From Candidatus Baldrarchaeota archaeon (GTDB lineage: Archaea; Asgardarchaeota; Baldrarchaeia; Baldrarchaeales; DXJG01): DNA of 32,000 bases. The stretch is taken from assembly GCA_019056805.1 (NCBI GenBank), contig DXJG01000001.1, positions 156,572 to 188,571 on the forward strand. Reading direction: 5' to 3'. The position numbers and the translations under genes were made by a program. Numbering within the stretch: position 1 is the first letter of the stretch; each line of letters starts with the position of its first letter. Shown here one piece after another: positions 913 to 20,559 of the stretch. The notes beneath the pieces are model-generated. The model was not told the origin of the DNA and did not search any database. It saw nothing but the letters and a program-made list of their open reading frames with translations.

Positions 913-2358
913 TTATCCTGTATACTTGTAGCGTCCCGTTTTCCTAGCCCATTCAATTGTGTCAGGATCAATTCGTTTCATTTCAGCTGGTTCGATCATA
1001 GATAATAGATCCCAAGCTAAGTCCAACGTATCGTCAAAGGTTCTATTTTCGAACTCACCTTGATTTATGAATCGTCTTTCAAATTCATCTGCAAATTGCA
1101 GGAACTTTCTATCTCTTTCGGTCAGAGCTTCTTCACCTACTACTTCGACAAGCTCACGCAGATCGCATCCTTCACTATAAGCATAATAAAGTTGGTCGCT
1201 AACTTCTCTATGGTCAAATCGTGTAAGTCCTTCACCGATACCTTCTTTCATCAGTCTGGACAGACTTGGACGGGGATCTATAGGGGGATATATACCCTTA
1301 CGGTGAAGTGCTCTATCTAAAATAAGCTGGCCCTCTGTTATATAACCACTAAGGTCTACTACGGGGTGTGTAATATCGTCGTGCGGCATCGTGAGAATAG
1401 GCATCTGGGTGATTGTACCCTTCCTTCCATGAATTCTTCCAGCTCTTTCATATATTGTAGCGAGATCGGTATATAGATACCCAGGGTAACCACGACGTCC
1501 AGGTACTTCTTCTCTCGCTGCTGAAATTTCTCGTAATGCTTCTGCATAATTTGTTATGTCCGTTAATATCACTAATATGTGATAGTCCTGGGTGTATGCT
1601 AAATATTCTGCTGTTGTTAAAGCTATTCGTGGCGTTATAAGCCTCTCTATAGCGGGGTCATTTGCTAAGTTTAAAAACAACACAGTATGTTCCAATGCTC
1701 CTGTTTTCTTGAAGTTTTGATAGAAGTACGTAGCTTCTTCTTGTGTTATACCCATCGCTGCAAATACTATAGCGAATTCTTCCTCCTTTCCCGGTACTGT
1801 CGCCTGTCTTGTTATTTGTGCCGCTATTCTATTGTGTGGCATTCCACTGCCTGAAAATAATGGTAACTTTTGACCCCTGACCAGTGTGTTCATCCCATCT
1901 ATTACCGATATACCTGTTTGTATCGGTTCTCGAGGATATTCTCTTGCATAGGGATTTATAGGTGCCCCGTGAATATCCCAGTAATCCTCCGGTATTGGAG
2001 GTGGCTGGTGATCTAAGGGCCTACCCGAACCGTCAAACACACGGCCTAGCAAATCTGTGGATACTGGTAGTTTTAATGTAGTTCCTGTAAATCTAACAAT
2101 TGTCTTTGAAGTATCTAATCCGTGCGTTCCTTCGAACACCTGAACTACGGCGAAATTTTTAGTAGTCTCTAATACTGTTCCACGGCGTTTTTCCCCATCT
2201 GGAGTTTCTACCTCTACTACTTCCCCATAAGCTACATCCCTTATTTTCTCTATGAAAAGGAGAGGCCCCGCTACTTCTGTTACAGTTTTGTACTCTATTT
2301 TAGTATGTGGATCTTCCATTATTTTGGAAGTTGTAGGATTATGTTCATGTTTTGGCAA
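913..2358 (-). CDS. atpB: A/V-type ATP synthase subunit B
   Basis: Motifs [46 protein letters not shown] and GYITEGQ. Likely start is TTG at 2358 (GAGGTG SD at 2367-2372); ATG at 2319 is an alternative. Confidence 0.96.
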
Positions 2359-7773: not shown

Positions 7774-9240
7774 TTAATATGTTAATTGTTGAAACAATGA
7801 AGTGACATTGTACGTAAGAAGGAAAATTAAGATGGTTAATAATATTTGTGACTTCATTCGAGGATCCATGGTTGCTTTACAATTCGCATAAGCTGTGATC
7901 ACTGAAGTCGCTAATAAGGACATTACCATGATTAAGTTATTAAATATAGGACTATACGATTTATTAAAAATAAACATTGTAGAATACGCTATCACAGGGA
8001 TAATTGCTGATATAAAGCCCAACAATGCTGTTAAAGCTATTGTTATTATTCTTGCTTTTAATCTCTGAGTAGCTACTAAAGTTTCTCTTTTCCTAGTAAG
8101 TGTAACTATTTCTCTTAGTTTCGTTGAAATTCCTGATATTTTTTCTCCAGATCTTTTTGAATCTTTTTCTATTATTTGAGCAGCAGTTTTTAAAGAAATT
8201 ATAACATAAGGATGTTTAAAATTAGCTATAAACTTAGCCCATGCAACTTTTAGCGGAGTTAAATTGAAAAACAAATCTTTAACCATAAGAGTCATCTTTC
8301 TGCTTACACTTTTTGAAACAGTTTTAATAGTTTCTGCTATAGCCTTTTCCGGCGAATAATTCAACTCAAGGAACTTACTGTAAGTTTCCAGGAACTCAGC
8401 ACATTCCTCCAATTCATTTATCATAGTCCTTGCCTCTATCTTCATATCCCTTGATAAAGGTAACAATATTTTCTTACTGGGGAATTTTTGTAAAAATATT
8501 TGAACTAGAGGGATTGTAGGAATAAGCCAAGAATATCCCCAGAGGGTATAGGTCATAGTGAGGAGAAAAGGTAAAAAGGTAGAGACAGTTACTATAAGTA
8601 AAATTCTCATTTCTATTTCTCTGGTCATTTTTTCATACTCGTTTTCCATTTCACGAAAATATTCTTCAATATTACTCGTATTTTGTTTCCCAACACTTAA
8701 AATAGCTAATACAGCCGTTTTGAAATCATTAGAAGGTTGAGTTAAAGCATAATCAAATAGCAATTTTTCTGGGGAGTGGCCAAACGACGTTTTCCTTAAA
8801 ATGTCTCTAAATTTTTGAGATACTATGGGGTAGTTTGATTGCGCAATACTCTTTATTGCTTCAAATACGGAATCTGTTGCTTCTAAACTCAATGACAATT
8901 CATAAAATACAAGAGGAGCTAAACTGGCATGTACAATCTTTTCGTTTGTATAAATCGAAGTAACAGAATTCTTAATCGAAAAAAACACAACATAAATTAC
9001 AAAAAAAGAAAATACAGCCGCTAGGTAAGCTCCAATTCTTACCAGAAGTAAAAATGATATTAACCCGAAAAGTAAACTTAGTATAAAAGCTGTACTCAAT
9101 AAAGCTGCAAATGAAATGTTAAAACGTTTTTTTAAATAGTCCGTTAGTTCTTCAGAATTTTTTCCCGCAATTTTTTCCCCAATTGTCAAAAGGAAATCCC
9201 ATTTCTCGATTTTTGTAGCAAGGTATCTAATTATATGCAA
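7774..9240 (-). CDS. Type II secretion F / TadC / ArlJ-like pilus assembly membrane platform protein
   Basis: Two cytoplasmic T2SSF-like domains (YELSLSLEATDSVFEAIKSIA...; FLETYSKFLELNYSPEKAI...), each followed by TM helices. Confidence 0.7.
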   Translation of the reverse strand: MHIIRYLATKIEKWDFLLTIGEKIAGKNSEELTDYLKKRFNISFAALLSTAFILSLLFGLISFLLLVRIGAYLAAVFSFFVIYVVFFSIKNSVTSIYTNEKIVHASLAPLVFYELSLSLEATDSVFEAIKSIAQSNYPIVSQKFRDILRKTSFGHSPEKLLFDYALTQPSNDFKTAVLAILSVGKQNTSNIEEYFREMENEYEKMTREIEMRILLIVTVSTFLPFLLTMTYTLWGYSWLIPTIPLVQIFLQKFPSKKILLPLSRDMKIEARTMINELEECAEFLETYSKFLELNYSPEKAIAETIKTVSKSVSRKMTLMVKDLFFNLTPLKVAWAKFIANFKHPYVIISLKTAAQIIEKDSKRSGEKISGISTKLREIVTLTRKRETLVATQRLKARIITIALTALLGFISAIIPVIAYSTMFIFNKSYSPIFNNLIMVMSLLATSVITAYANCKATMDPRMKSQILLTILIFLLTYNVTSLFQQLTY

Positions 9241-9253
9241 TATTTACTTTCTC

Positions 9254-11251
9254 CTAAATGTTTATAGAGAATTCTAATATTTTCCGTTTACGCACTACTA
9301 TAAAAATCCCTAATAGACAAGGTATACTAATTATCTTCAAAAAATCTTTTAAAAAGGAATAAATATTTCTTGACGGTAAAACTTCGATTTCTATTCTCTT
9401 CAAAGAGGCTCCATAGAAATCCGAGCCGTTGTATTTGAACATAACTACTATTATAGCTGGTTCGGAAGGCATTTTCAATTTTACAATTACTTTTCCATCG
9501 TTGTTTGTTTTCACAGTATTTAATAATGAATCATTAAGATAGACAGACAATTTTTCAAATTTCAACGGCATTCCTTCAATAGTTTGGAGAGTAACTTCAC
9601 AAATTATGATTTCTTCGATTTTTACCCGTCTTGGTATATTTAGGATTAATTCAGTTGGTATCTTCTCAACAATTCTATAAATTACGTAATTTTCTGCATT
9701 TAAAAGATATTGTTCTGGGTTTCCTAAATACGTCACTTTTATTATTAATTGACCGAAAACAGCATTACTTGGAATAATATATGTTATTGTAGCTTTTCCT
9801 AAATCATCTGTAGTGACGTTTCCTATGTATAAGTGATTGGTTATGTCGTAAGCATGTATGACTTTTCCTTGTAGGGGATCGTTTTGTAAAGTTTTAAGTT
9901 GAACGAAAAAAGATATCTGCATACTTCTAGCTACAAGAGTGATGTTATTTTCTTTTTTAACGACAAGATTTGGACGTTCGAAGACTAATATTGGAACTTT
10001 TAGCATAGTTGAATCATAAAATTCATCGCCTGGGAAATTGATCGTGATGAATGAGGGACCTTTAGCTTGAGAGACGTACCACTGTATTGTGGCGCATCCA
10101 TTATCATTTGTGATTGTACTAGTCAGCAAGTTTCCTTGACTATCAAAAACTAACAATTCTCTAAATGGTACAGGATCGTTTTGGTCATCAAGAAGGGTAA
10201 CATTTAATTTTGTTATTTCTCCACTAATTACCGTTACATTACTGAAACAAAAATCGATATACGTAATACCTCTTATCGTAAGCGTAACATTTCTTTCCGC
10301 GTTTTCATACCTTGGACTACCAGCAAAAGAAACTGTATAAACATATTCTCCCGGGTCTGTATAGTTTGGTATATAAATAATAGCTTCAAAAAAACCAGTA
10401 GCATTTGTCCATGCTGAAGAGACGTTTCCTTTTTCATTTTTTACATAAATTGCGGCATTAACCAGAGGATCACCTTTTTCATCTACTAGTTTCCCTGTTA
10501 TTGTTACAGTTTGGTTTCTATAAGCCACTTCGGGTTTTATTTCTAACATTGTTATATTAGTTTTTATTTTTCGAATATTAAGCGCTATAATACATGTACT
10601 TTTTTCGTAATACTGATAGGGACCAGCTTGAATAGTTAGTTCAATTTTTCCTTCAGAAGTTTTTGGCGAAGGTATATATCTTAAAACCGTCTCTCCTTTT
10701 TCGTTAGTAAATTGTTGATCAATTATCTTTTCTCCTTCTATTAACGATACATTTATTGCTTTTACGGGTTCTCCTACATCGTCTGTGACAGTAACATTAA
10801 TAACAACTTCATCTCCTGGAGCCACTGTCTGATCATAAGGGTCTAAAGTCGTATCAGTCACTAAAATAGTTAGGTAGGTTTTTCCCATGACCGTCAAATA
10901 AAACACTTGATACGAAGGACTTAGGTTTTTAGCAAGATTTCCTCGGAAAGTTGCATTTAACACAAGTTGACCTGGAGAATAACTTTTTGGCACAGTCCAT
11001 GATATTTGTGCAATTCCATTGTCATTTGTTACCGCTTCTCCTATGTACATGTTATGAGTTTCATCGTAGAAATATATCGTTTCGTTTACAACTGGTTCTC
11101 CTAAATCATCCTCTAAGGTTGCAGTAAGAGTAAGAGTCTGACCTCTATAGACAATAATTTCCTGACTTTGTGCATTTAGGACATTGAAGGAAAAATAACA
11201 TAAAAGTATCACTAAGATAGCTAACGAGGCGATGATAAATACCCTTTTCAC
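9254..11251 (-). CDS. Secreted, membrane-anchored protein with about six Ig-like (Big) repeats
   Basis: N-terminal signal peptide; ~100-aa repeats of the form TLxDxxGxPxxxxxI...TNxxG; C-terminal TM helix with RKRK tail; several NxT sequons. Confidence 0.8.
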   Translation of the reverse strand: MKRVFIIASLAILVILLCYFSFNVLNAQSQEIIVYRGQTLTLTATLEDDLGEPVVNETIYFYDETHNMYIGEAVTNDNGIAQISWTVPKSYSPGQLVLNATFRGNLAKNLSPSYQVFYLTVMGKTYLTILVTDTTLDPYDQTVAPGDEVVINVTVTDDVGEPVKAINVSLIEGEKIIDQQFTNEKGETVLRYIPSPKTSEGKIELTIQAGPYQYYEKSTCIIALNIRKIKTNITMLEIKPEVAYRNQTVTITGKLVDEKGDPLVNAAIYVKNEKGNVSSAWTNATGFFEAIIYIPNYTDPGEYVYTVSFAGSPRYENAERNVTLTIRGITYIDFCFSNVTVISGEITKLNVTLLDDQNDPVPFRELLVFDSQGNLLTSTITNDNGCATIQWYVSQAKGPSFITINFPGDEFYDSTMLKVPILVFERPNLVVKKENNITLVARSMQISFFVQLKTLQNDPLQGKVIHAYDITNHLYIGNVTTDDLGKATITYIIPSNAVFGQLIIKVTYLGNPEQYLLNAENYVIYRIVEKIPTELILNIPRRVKIEEIIICEVTLQTIEGMPLKFEKLSVYLNDSLLNTVKTNNDGKVIVKLKMPSEPAIIVVMFKYNGSDFYGASLKRIEIEVLPSRNIYSFLKDFLKIISIPCLLGIFIVVRKRKILEFSINI

Positions 11252-11401
11252 TTTTACCCATTTTATCTATGTTTATCTTAGAATTTAAACCCCTTGTCTT
11301 ATATTGTATGGTATCTGTATCTCAGACAGATTTATTTACATGAACCTAAACCTTAATAAGATACTAAATACTTCTAAAAAACGAAATAAGAGGTGTGCAT
11401 C

Positions 11402-11680
11402 TTGAGCGTAATTACTAAGAATATAGTTAAATTACTACGTATGATATCTTTGGTCTTTGTCATTATTTCAATTGCCAGTCTCATTTATATATCGATTAAC
11501 GGGCTTAACCTCTTATCATCTGCAATATTTCTTGTTTTTATCTATCTTTTCGGGATAACACTAGGTACCGCTGGAAAAATTGAAGAAAAAGAAGAAACAA
11601 AACCTAAAATTTTATTAGAATGGAGTGCCGCTTGCCTAGTCGGAGTTATTCTCCTAACATTAGTTATTTTCTTCTCATAA
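11402..11680 (+). CDS. Small hypothetical membrane protein (about 3 TM)
   Basis: Three hydrophobic segments; TTG at 11402 lies 6 nt after a GAGGTG SD (ORF track starts at 11393). Confidence 0.6.
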   Translation: MSVITKNIVKLLRMISLVFVIISIASLIYISINGLNLLSSAIFLVFIYLFGITLGTAGKIEEKEETKPKILLEWSAACLVGVILLTLVIFFS

Positions 11681-11765: not shown

Positions 11766-11819
11766 TCACACACCTAACATAATTGTATAATTAATTTCTA
11801 ATAACCAGGTGGTGATGAA

Positions 11820-12521
11820 ATGTCGACTGAAATCATCCGAGGAGTTCCTCCCACTAGAAACTTAGGGTGTCTAAAACTGGCACCCTAAGCTAGAATGGAA
11901 CTCCTCATCCTTAGAAGGCGAAAAATTCTTGCAGAAAAAGGTAGAGATTTACTTGAAGAAAAAAGGGACGCTTTAATTATGGAATTTCGAGACGTTTTGG
12001 AAAGAACATATAAACTACGGAACGAAGCTAACAAAAGTTTAGAAGAGGCGTTTAAGGAATTATCAGAAGTAAAAATGCTTATGGGACCTTTAATGATCGA
12101 AGAAATTGCGAGTAACATTCCTTCAACATTAGAACTCGAAGTAAAAACGAGGAATATAATGGGAGTCAGAGTACCAATTTTGAGGGTTAAAGAAAAACAA
12201 AACGAAGAACCTGTGCTTTATAGTTTCATCGATACTTCTTCCAAACTTGATACAGCCATTAAAAAATTTAGAAACGCCCTGAGAGCAATCTTAAGACTGG
12301 CGGAAACAGAAGGAGCTGTTAGAAGGTTGGCAGAAGAAATAAAAAAGACAAAAAGAAGAGTTAACGCCTTAAAATACGTAATTATTCCTAAGATAGAAAA
12401 CACGATAAAATATATTGAATTTTACCTTGAGGAAATGGAAAGAGAAGACTTCTTTAGGCTCAAGCGAATTAAGAGTTTATTGGAAAGAAAAGCAGGAGAA
12501 CGTATTAAAGCATCAACTTAA
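11820..12521 (+). CDS. atpD: A/V-type ATP synthase subunit D, interrupted by a 36-nt BHB-type intron (exons 11820-11859 and 11896-12521; 221 aa spliced)
   Basis: AGGTGGTGA SD, then ATG at 11820 gives MSTEIIRGVPPTR; joining across 11860-11895 gives PTRMELLILRRR...LLEEKRDALI...KTKRRVNALKYVIIP...LEEMEREDFFRLK, a typical AtpD. Confidence 0.92.
11860..11895 (+). other. BHB/BHL mRNA intron in atpD (36 nt, in-frame TAA at 11886)
   Basis: Exon stem GAGGAGTTCC(11839-48)/GGAACTCCTC(11897-906); central helix CTAG/CTAG; bulges AA|A and AA|T; intron stem CTTAGGGTGTC/GGCACCCTAAG. Confidence 0.82.
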
Positions 12522-18196: not shown

Positions 18197-18305
18197 TGGT
18201 GGGCCCGCCGGGATTTGAACCCGGGACTTCCGCCGTGTGAGGGCGGCGTCATAGCCGGGTTACCCAACGGAAGCTTATTTTCTTCCATTTCTAGACCACG
18301 GGCCC
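18197..18305 (-). tRNA. tRNA-Val(CAC) with encoded CCA and a 31-nt D-loop intron
   Basis: GGGCCCG acceptor, CCGCC-CT-CAC-AC-GGCGG anticodon arm, CCGGG-TTCAAAT-CCCGG T arm, A73 then CCA; 78 nt after intron removal. Confidence 0.95.
18260..18290 (-). other. BHB intron at tRNA position 15/16 (31 nt)
   Basis: Helix GTCT/GGGT, bulges AG|A and AA|C, intron stem AATGGAAG/CTTCCGTT; removal restores the D-arm GTCTAG-CCCGGCTA-TGAC. Confidence 0.85.
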
Positions 18306-19820: not shown

Positions 19821-19891
19821 ATATTCCACCTCAAAATTAGGGTGGCGCCGGGGGTGGGATTTGAACCCACGCGGCACAACGGCCACGGGCT

Positions 19892-19905
19892 ATCCACCCC
19901 TAGGA
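19892..19905 (-). other. BHB intron 3 of tRNA-Ser, canonical position 37/38 (14 nt)
   Basis: Helix CTGC/GTGG, bulges TA|T and AT|A, mini-stem CC/GG. Confidence 0.85.
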
Positions 19906-19913
19906 TAGCAGGC

Positions 19914-19941
19914 TTGAGCCCGCGAAGGAAACTATAGCGGA
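19914..19941 (-). other. BHB intron 2 of tRNA-Ser, position 29/30 (28 nt)
   Basis: Perfect helix GAGC/GCTC, bulges GG|T and AA|G, intron stem CCGC/GCGG. Confidence 0.88.
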
Positions 19942-19956
19942 CCGCTCCCTACCAGG

Positions 19957-19978
19957 TTCCCCGGAGATCTATTATCCT
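19957..19978 (-). other. BHB intron 1 of tRNA-Ser, position 15/16 (22 nt)
   Basis: Helix TCCT/GGGG, bulges AG|A and AA|C, short GGA/TCC intron stem. Confidence 0.83.
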
Positions 19979-20209
19979 CTAGGATACCCCGGCATTCTTT
20001 AATTAGATAAATGTGCGTCTTCCTTATTTATTATTTTCTAAGTTATTAATAGTGATTAATCAAAGAGCATGTTACTATACATAGTGGGTTTTTTAATTTT
20101 TGGAACAATAAGTCAAGTAACGGTTTAATAGAGATTTTGATAAATAGATCATAAATCAAGTAATATTCTTTAAATTTCAATAATATAGATAATTTTGAAA
20201 AGAATTAAA

Positions 20210-20559
20210 GCGGCCGCGGCCCCCTTGGGTGGATACCTTTCCCGATCGCGGTGTTTCAGCCCCCAGTCTCTACTCCGCACCCCCGTGAGCGCCGAACGTC
20301 CGGGGTTAGGTTGCTCCTTCGGGTGGACAGTAACACTCTCCATCTCCCGGGCCTGGCCTGGTTCCCCCGGTAAGGGTCGTAGTACTCCCGCCTAAGCGGG
20401 AGACCCGACCGCCGCCGACCCCACGGGACGGAGTTTCATCGCTGTGAGGCTAAATCCTGCGATCGGGGTTAGGTATCGCCCCTTGGGTTACTGGCCCCGC
20501 CATAAACCGGGTTTGCGGTTACAGGAAACCGGTAACTTCCCGGCCCTACCCGCGGCCGC
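20210..20559 (-). ncRNA. ffs: Archaeal SRP (7S) RNA with a 26-nt insertion/intron in helix 8
   Basis: Terminal helix GCGGCCGCGG/CCGCGGCCGC, Alu-domain CTGTAACC, long helix 5 (GATACCT/AGGTATC, CCCGATCGC/GCGATCGGG, ACTCCGT/GCGGAGT), helix 6 hairpin CTCCCGC/GCGGGAG, helix 8 GCCAGG...AGCAAC. Confidence 0.92.
20318..20343 (-). other. BHB intron in SRP RNA helix 8 (26 nt)
   Basis: Perfect helix CGGG/CCCG, bulges AG|A and AA|G, intron stem TGGA/TCCA; splicing gives CAGG-CCC-GGGA-GGG-AGCA. Confidence 0.87.

Follow-up and report, generated by a model that had tools for sequence, protein, structure and literature searches.

A candidate bulge-helix-bulge intron in the atpD pre-mRNA of one genus of Baldrarchaeia-type Asgard archaea

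The cbf5 gene of Crenarchaeota has for two decades been the well-documented example of an archaeal protein gene with an intron that is spliced by EndA. The intron in the cbf5 pre-mRNA is reportedly present in Desulfurococcales and Sulfolobales, and its description is said to go back to Watanabe in 2002 and Yoshinari in 2006. The subject of this report is a 36-nt insert near the 5' end of atpD, the gene for the central-stalk subunit D of the A-type ATP synthase, in a 32,000-nt stretch of the genome of a Candidatus Baldrarchaeota archaeon (assembly GCA_019056805.1, contig DXJG01000001.1, positions 156,572 to 188,571; referred to as the window, with coordinates counted from its first nucleotide). 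The insert, located at 11860-11895, is interpreted as a pre-mRNA intron of the bulge-helix-bulge (BHB) type with a relaxed 3' site that would be spliced by EndA and RtcB, a reading to which we give a probability of about 0.8. BHB-type introns in archaeal pre-mRNA are a known kind, for which the atpD gene and the Asgard phylum are new, and no description of them in atpD or in any Asgard protein gene turned up in a search of a paper library. For cbf5, the cut is placed between the second and third nucleotides of the bulge, and a relaxed 3' site is frequent (Yokobori 2009, PMC2738675).

The atpD insert shares several features with the cbf5 intron: it is a short candidate intron in a protein gene, it has a BHB-like motif of the often relaxed kind with cuts predicted between bulge nucleotides 2 and 3, it would depend on a hetero-oligomeric, broad-specificity (alpha-beta)2 EndA, and its presence is patchy and restricted to a lineage. 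The two are not the same orthologous intron. The cbf5 intron lies at the codon for the catalytic Asp in Crenarchaeota, whereas the host gene here is atpD of an Asgard archaeon and the insert lies 13 codons from the start, in frame with a stop codon of its own and with a start codon recreated across the 3' junction. The motif geometry and the predicted enzymes are also those of the relaxed tRNA introns of Thermoproteota and Asgard archaea, in which an outer helix (h), a central helix (H), an inner hairpin (h') and the bulges (B) combine as hBH, HBh' or bulge-helix-loop (BHL) motifs. Unlike in those introns, the host RNA is an mRNA, and the exon helix is built from codons and not from a tRNA stem, including a His-to-Pro replacement in the GVHPTR motif.

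The insert in atpD and its predicted fold

The features of the locus in the window are as follows.

11820 to 11859, plus strand: exon 1, consisting of 13 codons (MSTEIIRGVPPTR) and the A of a split ATG codon, homologous to other archaeal AtpD N-termini
11839 to 11848, plus strand: 5' strand of the outer exon-exon helix h, GAGGAGUUCC, a perfect 10-bp complement of 11897-11906, invariant in seven haplotypes
11849 to 11853, plus strand: five exon nucleotides, unpaired in the fold, that face the 3' bulge and form the relaxed, BHL-like side of the motif; variation at 11849 and 11852 is synonymous
11854 to 11857, plus strand: 5' strand of the central 4-bp helix H in the fold, CUAG, in the exon, invariant
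11858 to 11860, plus strand: 5' splice-site bulge AAA with the predicted cut at 11859/11860, found in the minimum free energy (MFE) structure and in the RNAalifold consensus
11860 to 11895, plus strand: predicted intron of 36 nt, single copy in the genome
11861 to 11889, plus strand: intron hairpin h', with an 11-bp stem (11861-71/11879-89) and a 7-nt loop
11890 to 11893, plus strand: 3' strand of helix H in the fold, CUAG, in the predicted intron, invariant
11894 to 11896, plus strand: 3' splice-site bulge AAU with the predicted cut at 11895/11896
11895 to 12521, plus strand: publicly called open reading frame (ORF) of 208 aa
11896 to 12521, plus strand: exon 2, atpD through its stop codon
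11897 to 11906, plus strand: 3' strand of helix h, GGAACUCCUC, in exon 2, seen in the fold, by the repeat finder and in the alignment

An earlier sequence-only reading of this DNA had assigned ATG 11820 a strong Shine-Dalgarno (SD) sequence and had placed an in-frame stop between this start and the body of atpD, and both assignments were borne out. The SD-like sequence AGGTGGTGA at 11807-11815 (+) serves ATG 11820, which opens the 13 codons of exon 1. The next 36 nt in frame read NLGCLKLAP*AR, followed by MELLILRRR of AtpD, and the TAA at 11886-88 inside the insert is kept in 7/7 haplotypes, which rules out read-through. Deletion of 11860-11895 restores PTRMEL in frame, as the same reading had proposed, and this motif is near-universal in intronless genes. 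The predicted spliced mRNA reads ...CCC ACU AGA AUG GAA... and encodes an AtpD of 221 residues. The predicted junction sequence is ...CCCACUAGAAUGGAACUC..., also given as ...GUUCCUCCCACUAGAAUGGAACUCCUC..., and IIRGVPPTRMELL is an example of a predicted junction-spanning peptide from a non-tryptic digest. A direct repeat, CTAGAA, has the effect that any 36-nt deletion from 11854-89 to 11860-95 gives an identical product, so the exact cut sites come from the BHB rule and not from the product.

The public gene calls all give a truncated protein of 208 residues, because the ATG that straddles the 3' splice site passes for a start codon. This form is recorded in NCBI, JGI, ENA and Logan, in agreement with the claim that gene callers would report an apparently intact gene, and it matches the Pfam family ATP-synt_D at 9.2e-66 over the full model (profile 1-196).

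The MFE structure of 11830-11915 is exactly the structure that had been proposed in the sequence-only reading. Its energy of -39.4 kcal/mol compares with a mean of -17.4 for shuffled sequences (z -6.98; 0/200 shuffles are as stable), and it carries 89% of the ensemble. The perfect 10-bp repeat 11839-48/11897-906 was recovered by the repeat finder, and a perfect 9-bp inverted repeat at 11861-69/11881-89 reaches 11 bp when one G-U and one C-G pair are counted. Both the CUAG/CUAG helix and the AAA bulge at the 5' site conform to the canonical BHB motif, the 3' AAU lies in a 5x3 internal loop and is relaxed and BHL-like, and both flanking helices are present as the 10-bp exon helix h and the 11-bp intron hairpin h'. 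A scan for this geometry over both strands of the whole 1.9-Mb genome, which required 7 bp or more in each of the outer and inner helices, returned 380 matches, and the atpD motif is the best of them and the only one that is free of G-U pairs. The sequence observation is real and well beyond chance.

The genome holds one copy of atpD, and genes for the A and B subunits are present. The atpD gene stands alone behind an ORF for a 95-aa membrane protein (11393-11680), and the A and B subunits are encoded by two widely separated ATP-synt_ab genes, at window 1258-1914 (minus) and at C6 21948-22619, which indicates that the A-type ATPase genes are scattered and do not form one operon.

Distribution, selection and covariation

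Homologous atpD genes were collected from 40 related genomes, a species-representative genome collection and JGI metagenomes, and the DNA upstream of the MEL codon was read in each. This gave 117 distinct intronless genes out of ~180 further atpD loci across Archaea. All 117, a set that spans Asgard relatives with 57-67% identity, methanogens and DPANN, read ...(G)(V/I)xPTRMEL... unbroken. The 13 upstream codons thus encode the genuine N-terminus of subunit D, which is conserved. The insert lies exactly between the conserved PTR and MEL. The comparison with relatives had been named as a check on the intron interpretation, and it showed that the 13 codons are present in them and that the insert occurs in only one genus, always at the same place. 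This genus is of the Baldrarchaeia type and includes the genome studied here (G000) and two others (G001 and G003); seven distinct haplotypes carry the insert, this stretch included. The Baldrarchaeum yapensis genome, from the same order, is without the insert, and no other interruption of atpD was found in 157 loci checked. Stops that were flagged in the atpD matches of four other Asgard genomes proved to be natural stop codons. Record names point to hydrothermal and Guaymas-type sediments as places where the carrier genus occurs. Among its metagenome-assembled genomes (MAGs), one bears the title Candidatus Baldrarchaeota Yap30.bin4.67 and another, inconsistently, Odinarchaeota AUK032. The latter, titled Candidatus Odinarchaeota (AUK032; L040, JAGGSW010000147.1), groups with the Baldrarchaeota-titled MAG in the same genus and carries the same atpD intron, so its public label looks outdated.

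The haplotypes also reveal how exon 1 and the insert have been allowed to vary. Codons 4-13 of exon 1 include five variable codons in the seven haplotypes, all with synonymous differences and 0 amino-acid changes, whereas the 12 codons of the insert, read in frame, include seven variable codons with six amino-acid changes. Codons 2-3 of exon 1 are both variable, with two amino-acid changes, and these codons also vary across Archaea. For comparison, the first 30 codons of exon 2 include 15 variable codons, of which 13 are synonymous and two have conservative changes. One haplotype starts with GTG and the others with ATG, and an SD sequence of the GGTG type stands at the same spacing in all carrier haplotypes and upstream of the true N-termini of the intronless relatives. 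The synonymous sites 11849 and 11852 fall in the five unpaired nucleotides, so a constraint on the helix is no explanation for them. This pattern indicates that exon 1 is under purifying selection at the protein level and the insert is not, and it makes a dead upstream exon very unlikely.

The covariation analysis used the alignment of the seven haplotypes with 500 shuffles, and slid the pairing partners by 1-3 columns as a control. On the proposed structure 98.9% of the cells are paired, compared with 31-50% in the slid controls, and none of the 500 shuffles reaches its covariation score or its number of extra pair types. RNAalifold independently predicts the same consensus structure. Covariation in the stems had been listed as a check, and it was obtained in part: the inner hairpin h' has three compensatory pairs, at 11867-83 (G-C, A-U, G-U), 11868-82 (U-A, G-C) and 11871-79 (C-G, G-C, U-A, G-U), whereas the outer helix h and the central helix H never vary. 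The top and the loop of the hairpin differ by up to six substitutions between strains with 98% identical AtpD, and it is striking that the central helix, both bulges, the lower six hairpin pairs and the whole outer helix are invariant over the seven haplotypes.

The outer helix is specific to the carriers. All haplotypes form 10/10 Watson-Crick pairs, while in the 117 intronless genes a median of 5 and at most 8 of the homologous ten positions pair, and in the nearest Asgard relatives 3-6 of 10. The carriers read GVPPTR, as opposed to GVHPTR or GIHPTR in the intronless Asgard relatives (codon 11847-11849). The CC of this Pro codon pairs with the GG of AUGGAA and closes the helix beside the 3' site, with its C pairing with G11897. 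From these pairs we infer that the replacement of His by Pro served the RNA structure.

Weighing the intron against other explanations

In the proposed mechanism the transcript would fold such that 11839-48 of exon 1 pairs with 11897-906 of exon 2, with the CUAG/CUAG helix, the AAA bulge, the AAU in the 5x3 loop and the 11-bp hairpin in place. A two-subunit EndA would cut after the second nucleotide of each bulge, at 11859/60 and 11895/96, and RtcB would join the exons, yielding the 221-residue AtpD with the universal PTRMEL N-terminus. As long as the RNA is unspliced, ATG 11895 is buried in this fold and lacks an SD sequence, and splicing is therefore probably obligatory for full-length subunit D. 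The comparative tests, namely position, spread, covariation, selection on exon 1 and the helix that only carriers have, all support the BHB-type intron interpretation of the sequence-only reading, and from these and from the presence of the enzymes we infer cleavage and ligation in the cell.

The enzymes are encoded in this genome. It contains two tRNA_int_endo paralogues and RtcB (3.7e-183). The 184-aa EndA paralogue, encoded in the C9:197884-198129 region, has as its best match the catalytic alpha subunit of Aeropyrum pernix (3P1Z_B, 1.5e-44) and retains the catalytic His (GIDHAPF), and its Lys39 aligns with Lys44 of the A. pernix enzyme (APE) in the Crenarchaea-specific loop. APE K44 is essential for broad substrate specificity (PMC3488258). 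In the 178-aa paralogue, from the C9:13779-14039 region, a Val stands in place of the catalytic His of M. jannaschii EndA; a structural beta subunit, which this paralogue appears to be, would be expected to lack that His. An Asgard (alpha-beta)2 EndA with an L1 loop has been reported, a type that cleaves the relaxed hBH, HBh' and BHL motifs (PMC5829648), and the EndA of this genome is assigned to that type from the two paralogues.

ARAGORN, with introns allowed, called only 18 tRNA genes, 12 of them interrupted, in this genome of an estimated 91% completeness. Few detected and mostly interrupted tRNA genes fit the heavy interruption reported for Asgard tRNA genes (bioRxiv 10.64898/2026.10.13.758758), and introns presumably break up most tRNA genes too much for them to be recognised. 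A further ARAGORN call, at window 19843-19993 (minus; C6 176414-176564), is an odd 'tRNA-Asp (atc)' whose 53-nt intron is placed at position 33. The Rfam tRNA model is below threshold there, and the region may be a multi-intron tRNA gene.

Additional inserts were found in the same genome. The pyrG gene is split between Pfam positions 40 and 42 by a 32-nt insert with the strict hBHBh' geometry at C9 155012-155043 (minus), with a CCCC/GGGG central helix, the bulges UAA and AAU and an 11-bp hairpin. When this insert is canonically removed, 43+508 codons are fused and KIDPYLNVDPG is restored; the junction falls within a codon. The atpD insert shares its general geometry and size class; the pyrG motif, however, is strict with an exon helix of 4 bp, whereas that of atpD measures 10 bp and its 3' site is relaxed. 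A third insert, of 22 nt, is located at C17 158950-158971 (minus) between MKKIKVIIMGAAGRD and FHNFNVHF, with a CGCG/CGCG helix and the bulges ACA and AAU, and its removal opens a frame of 449 codons. The glyA (SHMT) gene at C6 43039-44102 (minus), 113 kb upstream of the window, is in two Pfam pieces in two frames, one covering profile 49-285 with an in-frame TAA and the other 286-399, with ~29 nt between them and a GC-rich hairpin at the junction. The AAU 3' bulge is common to the atpD, pyrG and C17 inserts, and this shared bulge, together with the fact that pyrG could not be repaired by codon-matched hopping, favours one common splicing mechanism. In fbp the Pfam search gave an uninterrupted match without stops and did not confirm two introns there, and a relaxed scan of the 32-kb window returned no second convincing case.

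Several observations weigh against the intron interpretation. Instead of forming a canonical 3-nt bulge, the 3' site lies in a 5x3 internal loop, and the U of its AAU is paired with a G in the MFE structures of three haplotypes. The invariant outer and central helices give no covariation, and coding constraint could be behind part of their invariance. Splicing of cbf5 was shown by cDNA and by in vitro cleavage, whereas that of atpD is predicted from DNA. The genome-wide scan for BHB motifs that had been suggested recovered the pyrG insert and gave no enrichment of frame-fusing cuts. In this census of the strict hBHBh' geometry, canonical cuts that fuse ORFs were compared with cuts displaced by 1 or 2 nt, both with a codon-usage filter and without one and at several helix thresholds, and the counts were similar, e.g., 120 versus 135 and 120; noise from gene-gene junctions and antisense frames swamps a few true cases, and the census is therefore blind to the number of introns either way. 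Two further points belong to the rival explanations and are the spacing of the insert's stop to the next ATG and the matched codons at the ends of the insert.

The rival that survives best is a tolerated insertion, which we regard as unlikely. It holds that a 22-residue peptide is made from ATG 11820 to the stop TAA 11886 and that reinitiation or an independent start at ATG 11895 yields the 208-residue AtpD minus 13 N-terminal residues. The stop at 11886-88 and ATG 11895 are only 6 nt apart, the 208-aa ORF covers the whole ATP-synt_D model, and the public gene calls use this form. This explanation is at odds with the purifying selection on codons 4-13, the start codon and the SD sequence of exon 1 next to an insert that is free to change, and with the near-universal PTR before MEL in other atpD loci. 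There is no SD sequence ahead of ATG 11895, which is buried in the -39 kcal/mol structure, and the invariant BHB core and the carrier-only exon helix would be left unexplained.

Translational bypassing is considerably less probable than reinitiation. Here the peptidyl-tRNA-Arg would take off at AGA 11856-58, slide 36 nt, land at AGA 11892-94 and resume at the ATG, giving the same PTRMEL product. The identical AGA take-off and landing codons within the 6-nt direct repeat CTAGAA and the stable hairpin in the gap agree with such an event, and it explains the selection on exon 1 equally well. The atpD insert also resembles the described bypass elements (T4 gene 60; the Magnusiomyces and yeast mitochondrial byps) in containing a stop, in its similar length, in its hairpin and in its matched flanking codons. 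In contrast to these elements, no stop follows directly after the atpD take-off codon: the next codon is AAC, which is neither a stop nor rare, and the stop comes 9 codons further on. The exon-exon helix is incompatible with a translating ribosome, which at 11856 would melt the 10-bp helix and leave this invariant, carrier-specific feature without a role. The CTAGAA repeat itself exists because helix H is the palindrome CUAG and both bulges start with AA. In pyrG, the insert interrupts a codon and lacks matched codons, so hopping could not repair the gene, while removal by the BHB rule does. Bypassing is not known from Archaea.

An assembly error, a footprint of a transposon or miniature inverted-repeat transposable element, or an atpD pseudogene is refuted as far as DNA-level data can do so: terminal inverted repeats and a 6-bp direct repeat do resemble a footprint, but contigs from at least six metagenome samples contain the insert, as do Logan contigs of three runs that come from two studies (with no joined, insert-free form in the DNA contigs of those three runs), the 36-mer is single-copy in the genome (blastn, self-match only), and atpD is single-copy, intact and conserved. 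A 16-nt partial match to the 36-mer on C10 is a chance match with no hairpin context. A group I or group II intron was rejected, with an insert of 36 nt against a ribozyme core of hundreds of nt and with no Rfam match in the region.

A broader statement joins the spliced atpD intron to the other inserts and has, in our judgment, even odds of being correct as a whole. It proposes that the genus routinely uses EndA and RtcB to splice micro-introns in several housekeeping mRNAs (atpD and pyrG, with BHB-shaped inserts, and the split glyA), that exon codons, including the His-to-Pro change, have co-evolved for the splice helix, and that expression of the ATP synthase stalk is gated by the tRNA-splicing machinery, the alternative start codon being hidden in the unspliced fold. 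Under this statement, protein-based splicing of mRNA would be a regular layer of gene expression among the archaea most closely related to eukaryotes.

Neighbouring features and implications

Elsewhere in the window, an archaeal signal recognition particle RNA (Rfam RF01857, 168.5 bits) lies at 20213-20556 (minus), near a tRNA-Val at 18197-18274. At 7774-11251 (minus), a 665-aa protein of immunoglobulin-like and carboxypeptidase-regulatory-like repeats adjoins a polytopic protein of 488 aa that weakly matches T2SSF, and the two may be a surface-filament or adhesion module.

BHB-type introns in archaeal protein genes are rare, and the atpD case is invisible to gene callers; if the interpretation is true, it exposes an annotation blind spot in which an intron is hidden in current gene calls. 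The locus would offer a compact, conserved substrate (68-86 nt) for studying the specificity of Asgard EndA, and would be an example of exon sequence evolving to serve the structure of a splice site. If obligatory for an ATP-synthase core subunit, such a splice would show that mRNA splicing by protein enzymes functions in the normal expression of genes in the archaea closest to eukaryotes.

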